Shown in pieces: positions 11,447 to 63,139 of a stretch of DNA of 64,000 nucleotides; position 1 is the stretch's first letter; every line of letters begins with the position of its first letter. The stretch is from Amoebophrya sp. A120 (taxonomy: Eukaryota > Protista > Dinoflagellata). The position numbers and the translations under genes were made by a program. The notes beneath the pieces are model-generated. The model searched no databases. It worked only from the letters and a program-made list of their open reading frames with translations, and was not told where the DNA came from. Location of the stretch: positions 10,411,732 through 10,475,731 of the forward strand of contig CAJINV010000003.1 in assembly GCA_905178155.1 (NCBI GenBank), written 5' to 3'.

Positions 11447-14400
11447 ATGGTTTCCGGCAGCTATTCATCGAAAAAGGCGGACGATTTCGACACGGTGGAC
11501 CCATATGCGGGTATCCAGCTTGACACTGGCACCGCCGCATTCAGCTTTCCCTTCGACGATCCGAAACTACGCGAAGAGAAAAAACCCGCGCGCGCCCCTG
11601 CGAAGAGTAAACACATCGGTAATAGATTAGTGCCCGTATGTTCATCTTGGTCCTAGTAATTTGTTGACTTTTTGCATTCGGAAGATTGCAGCTCCGCCGC
11701 CGCCAACATCTTTCACTTCTTCGACCACGAAATACTTTGGATGACATTTATTTCAGATGTAAAAAGATCCGATCTGTCTTAGTGTCGGCGTATGTAAAAA
11801 GCGCTACGATTACGTATGGATATGGTCGTGCTACTCATGTGTCAGAGATAAAAATATGCATAAACGAAAACTAGCGGGGAGGTCTTGATCTCGAAATATA
11901 TAAAAAATAATAAGTAAAAATTTCCAGCGGGGGCCGTCGTCTCAAAAACCGGCAATGAAAGTGAAACAGAAGACTCGGAGGACTTCGAAACACTGGAAGC
12001 TTTTCTGAATGCGGGGAAGAAGAAGCAGAGGCCCTCAAGCGGACCGCTGTCGTCAAGTATGTGATAGTGCTCCTCCTAGCCAGCGATCTTCATGTTGCTC
12101 ATGCGCATTTTCATCGTCTGTGATATTTTTTTTTCTGTTCATCTTGCCCGGGCATGGCGTCAATTGTTTCAAGGCTCTATGGTCCTGTGATATTTATTTT
12201 GAGGCGTCCGTCGTTCTCGTTTGTTCACCTGTGATGTCTGTTTATTGTTGGTTCATATTCTTAAACTGCTTGTTGATGTTGTCGATCTTGATACGGGCGT
12301 TTGGATTTCTCATCCTCATGTATGTTCACTTTTGCACGAGCACGACCACAACACAGGTACTGCCGGTCCCGGTATGTAGCCCAAGAAAAAACCCAAAAGC
12401 GTTACAGACAGGACACACTTTTGCGGGTTCTTTAGGAACATGAACATCACAGCATCGCTCTGCATCGCAAGAAGAGAAAACAAAGATCTGGAATGCGGAG
12501 ATCCTCAAGGAAAAGACTCACGAAGCTGGGAGGTATCCCGAGCATAGCGGGCGAGATTGCCTTTCTTGCTTGAAGCATGATTTCTTTTCCGACCTACAGA
12601 GGTGCGTAAGAACCTGTAGCGCTCTTTTCGTTGCAAAGCGTCCTTCGTAGCTCTACGACCGGAAACTCAGATCCTGCGGTATCATGTGCGAAAGTATCAA
12701 TCTTACTTAGTACGTAGAACGAAAACCACTTGCACGATGGATAACCAAGTTTTCTTAGCGTAAGAAATGGAATTGGTATACGCGGACTTACCTCCTTGAG
12801 AAGGGCAGGGCTTGTAGTGCCCGACTGCAATTACTACTACGAGTGGGAGTGCGATACTTTTGCCATGCATCTGCGACGCGAGTTGACAAAACGCTGCGCT
12901 GGTCCCTGGACGGGGAGGTGGATTCGCCTGTTTTGGGCAGAAGTGGGGTAAGAAATATAAATATCAAAGACGATGACCAACAAGAACAAACGGCTTTGCT
13001 TCATAGACTCTTTTCCGTCTTTCTTCGCACAGATCACTTGTCGTATCCATATGACAGAAAGAACTGCAAGTACGAACATGATTTTGGTATAATAACTATA
13101 AACCGCAATCGCAAATGATACAGCTATCACTCGACCCAAAGCAGGTGGCAGCTGCCGCGGCCTCGTCCTTGCCCGCGACGAAACGAAGCAAGGACAGCAG
13201 TGGCAGTAGCGGCAGCGCATCGGGAGAGTCATCGTCTTTCGAGGAGCAGGACGGTGATGTGTTTGGCAAAGTCCAAAATTGGTCTGACTTCAAGCTGAAG
13301 GCCACTGGTTCCAGTGTTGGTGCTGACGAAGGCACCTCGCCTACAATTGCACCGCCAGCCGCCGCGACTTCTAAAATCAGTGACGGTGGCAGGAGCGGAG
13401 CAGCTGATCATGCGACCGTAGCTACAAGAACGAGCCCGCCCAAGGAGGATATCAAAGGTTCGACCGCTGATCAAATCCACACGACGAGCGGAGGCGAGCA
13501 GCAGGAGTCGCGCCAGTTGTACAACAACATCAGTATAATCAGTAAGAGGACGGGGGATACCGATACTCGCTCCGACATCACTTCTATCCCCGTCCTAGTA
13601 GAAAGCGCTTCCGCGCCGCGCCCCGTGACGATCGAATATGAATTAGAAGGCGACGAATATTCGGAGATTTCCGAGGACATCCTTCCGCGGGAGCATTCCC
13701 TGGCCAGCGCCAGCCAATCGTATGTGGACGACTTCGACGAGTACGAAGAGAGCGAGGCGCCCGTGTCCCCCGCCGGCTCCTCATCTTCTGCAGCATTTGC
13801 AGGCGGTGCAGTGTCCTCCAGCAGCAATAAAGCAGAAGCTCGCATGTCCGCGCGCAGTGAGCGTTCGCAAGCGTCGTCGACCGCACGGCAGCATCGCTCC
13901 GGTGAGGGTCGTAGTTCGTCTGCGTCGTCCTCGTCTTCATCCTCTGCGGCAGCTGCGGGCTATGGGAGTGTAGTCAGGATTGAAATCGTAATCGACAAAG
14001 TTGAGATAACTTGTAATGCATGAAATCGATACCAGTGGGCGGCCTAATTTCCAAGCGGTTCCTGACAAATTTCGGTACCGTCTAAATCCAGTCTGTCATG
14101 CAGTTTTTTTAGGGACAGAAGGCGTCTTTTGGCATGCTACTTTAGCAGCTCTACTGCAGACCCCAAACAGGCGGACAGTCGGCCTCGCTTGCCATCCCTG
14201 CACGGTAGGCGCTTCATGTCGTGCAATTTATGCATGAGAAATTATTTCAACTTTGTCGATTTCGACCCTGGCGCTTCCATACGGGCGAGGGCGAAGATAC
14301 TGTCGAGCAGTCCTCGAAGCGGCGGAAGCGGCCGTCTCCACGAGACCGCAGCGGTCTGCTGCGCAAGAGCCAGGGAGCAGACGGAACGACGGGCACTGGC

Positions 14401-15832
14401 GAGAGAGCCGGGACTTCGACTTTTTCCGCGCAGAGCAGTCCGGTCGCATTTGATAAGCACTACGCGTCCACCTCGCCATCGTCATCTGTGTTTGATCACG
14501 CCGACATTTACGTTGGCGGTCGCGGAGACCAGGAGCCTGAGCTTACCAGTATTATGATTGCTTCCGTCGACAAGCAGGCTGCGACATCATCTTCAAAAAT
14601 GCGGTTCGCAAAAGTCGGGGCTGGTACTACCACTGCAGGCGGGTCGTCTTTGTCTTCGTCGGAACGAGACGAAGGTGCTCGCTCAAGAAGACGACACGCC
14701 GACGTACAGATGACGGAATCGCTAAAAACCGAGGGTCACAATACGGCGTCTTCCACCGCGAGCGCAAGCAAACCTGTAAAGCACCGTGCGCGCGAGATCG
14801 CAATCCAAACAGATGGACCAGGAGTCATGGGCGACTCAGGACAACCACAGTACTCGATTGGGGCACCTGGTGGTGCACTTCCGGCGTTTGGTGGAGCTGG
14901 AGCGGCAGCGCCACCGTATGCAGCTGCGCCCCAAGCCGCGCCGCCCTACGTTGCAATGGGATCGCAGCATCATCATCCGTACTACCCCTGTCCACCGCAT
15001 GCGCCGTCGATGCTGGCAGGTGCAGCATCGCCGTTCCTTGGGTATTACCCGCCGCCGTACTATCCGCAGTACGGAGCGTCGCTGGGAGCTTCCTATCAGC
15101 CTCAGTGGACATCAGGATCCAGGACGGTGCCGCTCTCTGAGCACGAGAGCCAGCGCTACAGCCAAATGCGCCGAGACCTCTTCCGGAATGCGCTGCAACA
15201 GGGTAGTACACAGGCGGAAGGTACTTCCACCGAAGAAACGGAAGAGATGTTTTTATTGTCCTGCTGCGTCTCTTGCTCTTCAATCAAGTTTGAGAGGTCT
15301 GCCCTTCTTGAAGAGTCACCTGCCTTGAGCAAGTTTTAATACTTGATCAATGATCAAGGCAGTTTATTGATAGAATGCACAAGATTGGCGATCGTGAGAG
15401 TCATAGTGTACGAATCGGAAAATCCTGACATCTGCATCTGGATATGTTGGATTGAAATGTACACATTCCGAAACCAATAAAAGCGAGGGCTAGTAAGGGC
15501 TCACTTTGATCTACCCAGGCGCAGGCCCGACCGCGCTCTCCCGTACAGCTTCTTGGGCTGAAACGCAGGACGAAGACGGCGTCGCGCACGGCCAGACAAC
15601 CCCGCCGCTTGCTTCGAAATCCAACACGACCTTGAAAGACGAAGAGTTTATGCCTCCGTCACGAATTCCACCAACAACGGTACCGCGCAACTCGGCCGAG
15701 GCGGAAAAGGAAAACGTACTTCCAGCCCGCTCCGAGCACGGTGTAGACCCAGCGCCTGCGAGGGATCCGCTCGGTCCTATGCGTATCCACCGTGATAAAT
15801 GTAATGCAGCCGCACCAGACGTGATACGATAG
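11447..15832 (+). CDS. Multi-exon, low-complexity (Ser/Ala/Pro-rich) uncharacterised protein; exon limits approximate
   Basis: ATG at 11447 (MVSGSYSSKKADDF...); long ORFs 13115-13960 and 14287-15250 join in frame across 13961-14286; probable last exon 15519-15832. Confidence 0.55.
13961..14286 (+). other. Non-canonical IR/DR intron (introner-like)
   Basis: CGGGC duplicated at 13956-60 and 14282-86; ~55-nt inverted repeat TATGGGAGTG.../...CGCTTCCATA; removal gives AAG|EGEDT in frame. Confidence 0.8.
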
Positions 15833-62802: not shown

Positions 62803-63139
62803 TATGAAACAAGTGAACTGCAACTCCGCCTCCGGTCCCGCACATTTGCCATGCAACATGGCGATAAATAATATATAAATTCCATGGCTCGGAACCTCCC
62901 AATAGAATAGCTCACCGGAAAATTTTAGTTGATTTCACTGGGGAACGATTTTCGTTTCCGGGCACCTGACCGCGTCGGACACAGCTACATCGCCGGGCAA
63001 AGCGGTCCGACTACACCTGCGGAGAAGTTGACGTCCCACCTTTGGGCCGCCCAAAAGTGAAAGCTTGCTAAAGCTTCAGGTTGAAAAACTGAAACCTCGC
63101 TGAGAAGTTGCGGCAGTCGTAGTTTTGGTCGTTTGTCAA

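Follow-up and report, generated by a model that had tools for sequence, protein, structure and literature searches.

Introns built from inverted-repeat elements, or introners, are known from Amoebophrya strains A120 and A25, where they carry inverted repeats of 8-20 nucleotides (nt) that start with TAT in A120 and with TTA in A25, are bounded by direct repeats of 3-5 nt and are supported by RNA (Farhat et al. 2021, PMC7789003). The same genome paper reports that some GT-AG introns are built like introners, that no clear signature was seen at the termini, and that splice sites are variable relative to the hairpin, with direct repeats of varying length and position; it leaves open how tens of thousands of non-GT-AG introns are removed. 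U2, U4, U6 and 83 of 89 spliceosomal proteins were found in that study, and U1 and snRNP27 were not detected. Here we analyse a 64,000-nt stretch of DNA from Amoebophrya sp. A120 (contig CAJINV010000003.1; the whole stretch is called the window and numbered from its first letter), in which 19 introns bounded by inverted repeats could be compared with transcripts. They share a cutting register and two invariant bases, U at the second intron position (U+2) and A at the seventh position from the intron end (A-7).

Because the legends of Fig. S19 and S23 of PMC7789003 cite 5-bp direct repeats and distances of 1-5 nt (A120) or 1-6 nt (A25) between repeats and splice sites, Fig. 3, S19 and S23 may already show part of the rule described here. 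We met no statement of the register or of U+2/A-7 in the literature, in which subscription papers and theses were not covered, and no further publication on Amoebophrya splice sites beyond PMC7789003, PMC12130899, PMC11282704, PMC11453091, PMC12005148, PMC9860276 and the others cited here, as far as their available parts go. The elements are thus already known, and the fixed register and the two-base signal appear to be unstated in print.

Transcripts skip introns that lack GT-AG ends

Our evidence consists of the window itself, transcript and DNA contigs placed on two stretches of it (43500-63300 and 22440-42439), and publications. Transcript evidence came from the contigs of runs X3, X4 and X6, which stem from one sample, were assigned to RNA by a guess of the tool, and drop minor isoforms. 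Seven joints came from the stretch 43500-63300 and 15, those listed among 24, from 22440-42439; one more (42433->43658) was placed from loose contig ends. The resulting 23 complete joints in RNA-type contigs comprise 5 GT-AG and 18 non-canonical introns (Table 1). None of the 22 listed joints occurs in the DNA runs X1 and X2, whose long contigs continue across many of them. Since the X3, X4 and X6 contigs skip the five GT-AG introns as well, and one of them has a poly(A) end, they behave as cDNA. Every gene considered is encoded on the + strand. One glycerol kinase exon of the window, used as query, is 99% identical to a deposited protein of Amoebophrya sp. A120 (P0003) and 72% identical to a protein of strain A25, and the joined glycerol kinase exons form an exact 362-residue substring of P0003.

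A preliminary description, made from the sequence alone, had reported terminal inverted repeats with 5-nt flanks and proposed that they mark non-GT-AG introns. The repeats and flanks are present, the triplets it gave were found at every start it named, and the introns are indeed transcribed and spliced, their joints being found in RNA-type but not in DNA contigs. The finding that it had named as fatal to its proposal, GT-AG junctions in cDNA, was looked for at the 18 non-canonical joints, none of which can be read as GT-AG. As joints can slide over duplicated bases, every equivalent register was enumerated, and no GT-AG, GC-AG or AT-AC reading exists at any of them. In 14 of the 18 there is not even a register ending in AG; the intron at 25392 is AT-AG.

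A fixed cutting register

In each of the 19 inverted-repeat introns for which an RNA joint is available, the removed length is that of the element plus 5 nt, as the preliminary description had stated and as expected from a 5-nt target duplication. Where the cut falls is more informative. The TAT...ATA class comprises 18 introns including decayed forms, namely 17 non-canonical introns and the GT-AG intron at 55140, and their repeats begin with TAT in 15 cases, TAC in two and TGC in one. All 18 are compatible with cuts placed 1 nt ahead of TAT and 4 nt past ATA (-1/+4). Two other registers were tried and rejected, 0/+5 fitting 11 of the 18 and -2/+3 fitting nine. The four joints without any slide (29754, 30636, 34484 and 38940) are all -1/+4. 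At the sole TTA...TAA element with a joint (49183), only 0/+5 or +1/+6 is allowed, and -1/+4 would be synonymous there. Selection on the protein was considered as a general cause of the register and rejected, the excluded alternative being synonymous at 30636, 38940 and 49183. Among the repeat-bounded introns, 55140 alone combines a GT or GC donor with an AG acceptor, and it shares its register with the non-canonical ones.

In register, 49 of the 90 positions of the flanking 5-nt duplications agree; in shifted comparisons the figure is 17-34 of 90. The register is nevertheless kept where the duplication matches at one of five positions (28998, 29754, 47497 and 60179), and the non-GT-AG introns all fit one fixed cutting register despite the decay of the duplications.

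This retains the fixed spacing of the preliminary description and corrects its offset, since the cut that it placed at the repeat start and 5 nt past the repeat end yields the RNA product in no more than the 11 TAT-type introns that also allow 0/+5. Six of its eight junctions were assayed. The predicted product equals the RNA at 39376, 47498, 49183 and 60180 and differs from it at 34482, where the repeat had been taken to start with TGC and the RNA intron spans 34484-36557, and at 38941, where the 3' repeat had been taken to end with CCA at 39316 and the RNA intron spans 38940-39335 with the 3' repeat ending in ATA at 39331. The junction at 13961 lies outside the stretches compared with transcripts, and that at 22526 is missing from the 15 joints listed out of 24; both have perfect 5-nt duplications, so that neither can fix the register, and removal of either restores a long frame. 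Glycerol kinase exon 4, thought to end at the TATG at 62803, has 62801 rather than 62802 as its last base, because the RNA contig departs 1 nt before TATG.

As a means of prediction from sequence, the rule is weak. A scan that demanded exact triplets, a duplication of at least 3 of 5 and a stem recovered three of the 19 introns that have RNA support. Eight hits belonged to the strong class, against 0, 0, 1, 1, 0 and 4 in six shuffles, and the total of 115 hits fell below the 209-266 of the shuffles.

Two invariant bases, U+2 and A-7

We screened 1,536 pairs of donor and acceptor position and base. The pair T+2 with A-7 came out on top, being allowed by 18 of 18 non-canonical joints, whereas random joints of equal slide would give 2.5 (log10 P = -16, or about -13 after correction for 1,536 pairs), and it is present in all four slide-free joints. 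Over the 19 introns the donor reads N-T-A-T-(G/C), with T at +2 in 19 of 19, A at +3 in 18, T at +4 in 16, and G or C at +5 in ten and eight, respectively, whereas +1 is mixed (A in seven; C, G and T in four each). The acceptor reads A-T-A-N4, with A at -7 in 19 of 19, T at -6 in 16 and A at -5 in 14; positions -4 to -1 are mixed, as are -8 and -9 around A-7. The two element types reach the same two bases by different routes, because TAT elements borrow one base of the duplication for the donor, and the donor of the TTA element begins at the element's own first base.

Published tabulations can be set beside these counts. In Table S4 of PMC7789003, T is the second base of 18 of 18 predominant motifs, and nine of nine motifs of A25 begin with TT, which agrees with T at +2 genome-wide. 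In six A120 families with at least 170 copies (among 22 of the 118 rows of PMC12130899), GT donors sum to 509 of 1,898, or 27%, close to the one in four that a free +1 would give. In those rows, the automated assignments of the A120 families are mixed (co-opting both sites, carrying the 5' or carrying the 3' site), with duplications of 2-5 nt. In yeasts, loss of SNRNP27K is associated with donors that have U at +4 (PMC10581693), the base found at +4 in 16 of the 19 introns here.

The terminal triplets are altered at ten of 108 positions, compared with mismatches at 41 of 90 positions of the duplications (P about 2e-6, a neutral estimate). If the duplications were perfect at insertion, the better preservation of the termini suggests selection on them. 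The ten changes fall at +3 (one), +4 (three), -6 (two) and -5 (four); both +2 and -7 are spared, and no change compensates for another. A-7 stands opposite C in three introns and is kept nonetheless.

How the introns may be removed

At roughly even confidence, we favour excision of these introns by a relaxed U2-type spliceosome, with the hairpin as a bridge between the ends, a free +1, and an acceptor counted from A-7 as the putative branch point. The first two steps of this scheme are seen in the data: the element and one duplication length are absent from transcripts and present in DNA, and the -1/+4 cut of TAT elements and the 0/+5 cut of the TTA element both give a donor N-U-A and an acceptor with A at -7. 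Pairing of the terminal repeats would then join the intron ends, replacing the undetected U1, and U6 would read +2 to +5 (UAU plus G/C) as a GUAUG-like donor with a free first base. The helix would be opened, A-7 would attack the donor to form a lariat, and the acceptor would be set by distance, six bases beyond the branch, with no reading of AG. Elements whose ends and 5-nt duplication place both bases correctly could in this way become harmless introns at any site and in either orientation. That a fixed register with U+2 and A-7 covers two element geometries counts for a reading based on the two bases. The branch role of A-7 is likely and can be tested. The hairpin can designate which ends belong together, a task beyond the power of two bases alone.

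Several observations weigh against this explanation. U+2 and A-7 are letters of the transposon's own termini, so that their constancy may reflect ancestry together with selection on the helix. The sparing of both among the ten changes is weak evidence for a two-base signal, because its P = 0.017 is post hoc and carries no correction for picking two of six positions. Only one of the four plain GT-AG introns has A at -7. No U2-pairing motif is seen around A-7 in the 19 introns, -9 being T in six of them, and A-7 is predicted to pair with U+4 (P > 0.5) in ten of the 19 end folds. As G occupies +5 in only ten of 19 and +6 is never U, pairing with U6 would be short. The introns at 24824 and 26812 are also readable as GA-AG, and that at 42435 as TA-AG. 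The TTA element at 49183, which alone separates the two-base rule from a ruler based on the stem, is represented by one contig (depth 12.6, side 71). Finally, the transcript support is that of a single sample with a guessed RNA status, 15 of 24 joints listed in one stretch, and minor isoforms dropped.

An unlikely but substantial alternative, close to what the preliminary description had proposed, is that a short terminal helix (+2:-5 to +6:-9) is recognised and cut 1 nt before and 4 nt after, so that the bases matter only for pairing. Watson-Crick pairs are formed in 14, 15, 15, 13 and 10 of the 18 TAT-type introns along +2:-5 to +6:-9, against four of 18 at +1:-4. Pairing is specific to the intron: in 19 of 19, the two ends of an intron pair better with each other than swapped ends do (11 reach z <= -2, and none of the four plain GT-AG introns does); the ends are closed in whole-intron folds, and the terminal triplets are kept on both sides. 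Such a ruler is, however, weakened by the overhangs at the stem foot, which are 1 and 4 nt in TAT elements and 0 and 5 nt in the TTA element. In addition, only nine of 19 introns have a predicted terminal +2:-5 pair (P > 0.5), the cut is in register with the best ungapped helix in ten of 18 and out of it in eight, none of the ten changes is compensatory, the intron at 24824 retains one of three terminal pairs, and the whole-intron folds of two introns scored z = +0.5 and -1.8 against shuffles. Given differing overhangs and a variable stem foot alongside constant U+2 and A-7, the acceptor looks measured from the base A-7 rather than from the stem foot, and the hairpin is a poor candidate for an exact ruler.

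It is improbable, in our estimate, that the spliceosome is bypassed, with a duplex-specific nuclease cutting at fixed offsets, a ligase sealing the exons together and full-length circles being released, as proposed for euglenids and diplonemids. The unreadability of the 18 joints as GT-AG, GC-AG or AT-AC, the lack of an AG-ending register in 14 of them, paired ends like those of euglenid and diplonemid introns (PMC11282704, PMC12621601) and the undetected U1 (PMC7789003) would suit such a route. It is opposed by the spliceosomal U+2/A+3 kept at the donor, the register shared with a GT-AG intron, the absence of the CAG/CTG signature of euglenid introns, and the near-complete U2 spliceosome reported in PMC7789003.

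Splicing guided by the exons, in which the 5-nt duplication would pick the acceptor through U5 loop 1 or direct repeat matching and the termini would be mere transposon relics, could draw on the in-register matches of the duplications; we regard it as very improbable, as the register holds where a single position of five matches and the termini are kept far better than the duplications. That no RNA splicing takes place, the joints reflecting DNA-level excision, insertion polymorphism or an assembly artefact, is scarcely credible and largely refuted already, for although X3, X4 and X6 are labelled 'RNA?' by guess and come from one sample, the same contigs skip five GT-AG introns, one contig has a poly(A) end, and the DNA runs contain none of the 22 listed joints and pass unbroken through many.

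Intron catalogue and other features of the window

Table 1. Introns of the window, with the transcript or sequence evidence for each (registers are given relative to the terminal repeats of the element).
Position	Strand	Feature	Evidence
13960..14285	+	Predicted intron, TAT...ATA element 13961-14281, perfect CGGGC duplication, which leaves the register ambiguous	Sequence; without it, a frame of 643 codons is free of stops
22526..23864	+	Predicted intron, TTA...TAA element 22526-23859, perfect GATCG duplication	Sequence; frame restored
23937..24310	+	Non-canonical CT-CG, -1/+4, 0/+5 excluded	RNA joint 23934->24309 in X3, X4, X6; none in DNA X2
24504..24770	+	Plain GT-AG without end pairing (control)	RNA joint
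24824..25326	+	Non-canonical AT-GG, 3' ATA decayed to AGC; alternative GA-AG 24823-25325	RNA joint 24822->25326
25392..25662	+	Non-canonical AT-AG	RNA joint 25390->25662
26384..26757	+	Predicted intron, element 26385-26753, perfect TTTGG duplication	Scan; 54-nt RNA piece before next joint starts at 26754 (indirect)
26812..28889	+	Non-canonical, perfect AGGAA duplication; alternative GA-AG 26810-28887	RNA joint 26807->28886
28998..29621	+	Non-canonical GT-AA, 0/+5 excluded	RNA joint 28996->29621
29754..30150	+	Non-canonical TT-TG, unambiguous -1/+4	RNA joint 29753->30151, no slide
30180..30609	+	Non-canonical AT-CA	RNA joint 30177->30608
30636..30958	+	Non-canonical AT-GA, unambiguous -1/+4	RNA joint 30635->30959, no slide
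33400..34002	+	Non-canonical GT-GT, LCAT-family gene (Pfam PF02450)	RNA joint 33399->34003 in X3, X4
34484..36557	+	Non-canonical CT-CA, repeat begins TGC at 34485, unambiguous -1/+4	RNA joint 34483->36558, no slide
38488..38838	+	Non-canonical CT-CC, 0/+5 excluded	RNA joint 38485->38837
38940..39335	+	Non-canonical TT-CA, unambiguous -1/+4	RNA joint 38939->39336, no slide
39375..39493	+	Non-canonical AT-GA, 119 nt, GGGAA/CGGAA	RNA joint 39371->39491
39608..39866	+	GT-AG without end pairing (control)	RNA joint
42132..42356	+	Predicted intron, element 42133-42352, GCTCG/GCGTG	Scan; X6 piece ends at 42131, its record continuing
42435..43658	+	Non-canonical GT-AA; alternative TA-AG at +1	RNA loose ends at 43658 and 42435
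47497..47736	+	Non-canonical CT-CC, CorA-family gene with EF-hand (Pfam)	RNA joint 47496->47737; DNA contig X1 continuous
48167..48444	+	Non-canonical TT-TT	RNA joint 48166->48445
49183..53051	+	3,869-nt intron, multicopy TTA...TAA element 49183-53046 plus CCTGC, 0/+5	RNA joint 49182->53052
55140..55364	+	GT-AG, same geometry G-TAT...ATA-TGAG	RNA joint 55139->55365
60179..60427	+	Non-canonical AT-AA, inside glycerol kinase IDQGTTS motif	RNA joint 60178->60428; joined exons an exact P0003 substring
60607..61738	+	Plain GT-AG, glycerol kinase (control)	RNA joint
61976..62666	+	Plain GT-AG, glycerol kinase (control)	RNA joint
62802..64000	+	5' part of a further intron, start C-TATG; 3' end beyond the window	RNA loose end behind 62801; P0003 continues KWD

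The 3.9-kb element at 49183-53046 has a DNA depth of about 190-340, compared with 42-45 elsewhere, and its other copies end at 49182 and 53046-53047; terminal inverted repeats (TIRs), a target duplication and multiple copies with the same ends are features found in non-autonomous TIR DNA transposons of the miniature inverted-repeat (MITE-like) type. It contains a 193-nt internal inverted repeat (50847-51366) and open reading frames (ORFs) without a Pfam match. The element at 22526 shows a depth of 84-181 against about 27 in single-copy parts; RNA contigs give no cover inside 23107-23773 and 27109-28442, which we did not count in favour of the 22526 intron. Nested in the 26812 intron is a further TTA...TAA element (27429-28772), near-perfect, flanked by TATAT/TATTT and of single-copy DNA depth. 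At 24822-24893 the DNA depth reaches about 30,000 and many contigs join at 24822-24825, so the 5' end of the 24824 intron is part of a very abundant repeat. About 31 nt at 24794-24824 are common to RNA contigs of all three runs and a different transcript, probably of a paralogue.

A blastn comparison among 30 introns and elements of the window found no family pairs, and only the nested element matched. Pfam searches of 71 ORFs, including those inside elements, found no transposase and one sub-threshold zf-BED hit (E 0.00088), in an ORF at 42382-42861 in the 42435 intron that is perhaps a transposase relic. Rfam gave no match in the window, including the 130-bp unit that occurs in 48 tandem copies of 99% identity at 2326-8608. 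Related units of 101 and 135 bp (2187-2370; 35134-35403) are found close by and within the 34484 intron, in which RNA contigs show loose ends.

Micro-exons of 29, 26 and 39 nt (30151-30179, 30610-30635 and 39336-39374) lie between non-canonical introns and are too short for usual exon definition. At 25687-26379, a good TAT...ATA element (25690-25976) is not simply reconcilable with the length of a 25-nt RNA piece. At 39608-39870, the GT-AG intron has a GTACT/GTACG repeat and TATG at 39613, without end pairing and without A-7, and is possibly an old introner shifted to the canonical register. Over 30959-33399, one X3 contig runs from the upstream gene into the LCAT-family gene, and an X6 piece ends at 32206, with another 28 letters beyond. 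RNA sequence past the loose end at 62801 was not found within the window, and the intron starting at 62802 contains inverted and tandem repeat arrays (63150-63960).

The CorA-family gene occupies 47200-55440, with its EF-hand at the N terminus, and an intron-free ORF of the sialyltransferase family (GT29) lies at 56258-58645. In a metagenome search, 80 glycerol kinase loci with 50-65% identity came up, none of them from a close relative; they played no part in the analysis.

Implications

A fixed register with two invariant bases permits a direct test of a branch at -7, and it gives annotators a means of placing ambiguous junctions. In the second splicing step, G+1 and the final G normally pair up. 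If A-7 is the branch, a spliceosome can forgo both while keeping U+2 and the branch A, and the conversion of transposons into introns at any site would be explained.

With somewhat less than even confidence, we extend this to the proposal that the U2-type spliceosome of A120 and A25 has jointly given up U1, G+1 and the AG acceptor, its introns being defined by a hairpin, U+2 and the branch A-7, with a counted acceptor. If this is true, a single two-base code would account for the majority of non-canonical introns, which make up more than 60% in A120 and A25, and the harmless landing of TAT- or TTA-ended transposons with 5-nt duplications anywhere in a gene would follow.

Comparison with known systems

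A canonical U2-type intron offers little resemblance, as neither its GT/GC-AG ends, sought at the 18 non-canonical joints, nor its U2-pairing branch motif was found here and only T at +2 is kept. The published Amoebophrya introners come from the same organism and are the same elements, with inverted repeats, direct repeats at the boundaries and splicing seen from transcripts; they were described with variable sites (PMC7789003), whereas the introns of this window have a 5-nt duplication, a fixed register and invariant U+2/A-7. Introners of Micromonas, Aureococcus, Symbiodinium and Polarella likewise combine TIRs with a target duplication and seamless splicing (PMC11282704; bioRxiv 2020.10.14.339549; PMC12130899), and in class 12 of Polarella the duplication is 5 nt and the donor can straddle the boundary of duplication and element. 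These introners, however, recruit G-H donors and AG acceptors, which restricts their insertion sites, while here neither G+1 nor AG is needed.

Trichomonas, Giardia and Yarrowia introns resemble those described here in that an adenosine lies a short, fixed number of nucleotides from the 3' end; in the present introns it has a putative branch role. The distance from motif to AG is 2 nt in Yarrowia, 3 nt in Candida guilliermondii and 4 nt in Trichomonas and Giardia (PMC2483917), which we count as A at -6, -7 and -8. Those of Trichomonas, Giardia and Yarrowia nevertheless keep (W)CTAAC, GT and AG and are not transposon-derived, in contrast to the present introns, which have no motif and no AG, and whose A lies within the terminal repeat. 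Fritillaria borealis also has non-GT-AG introns that derive from transposons and are ascribed to an adapted U2 spliceosome (PMC13326754; PMC11282704), but with AG-AC or AG-AT ends and a conserved U1, whereas here +1 and -4 to -1 are free and U1 is undetected. The nonconventional introns of euglenids and diplonemids (PMC11282704, PMC12621601) likewise have paired ends at fixed offsets, short direct repeats and no GT-AG; they differ in carrying CAG/CTG at +4..6/-8..-6 and in being released as full-length circles, where the introns of this window carry TAT/ATA at +2..4/-7..-5.

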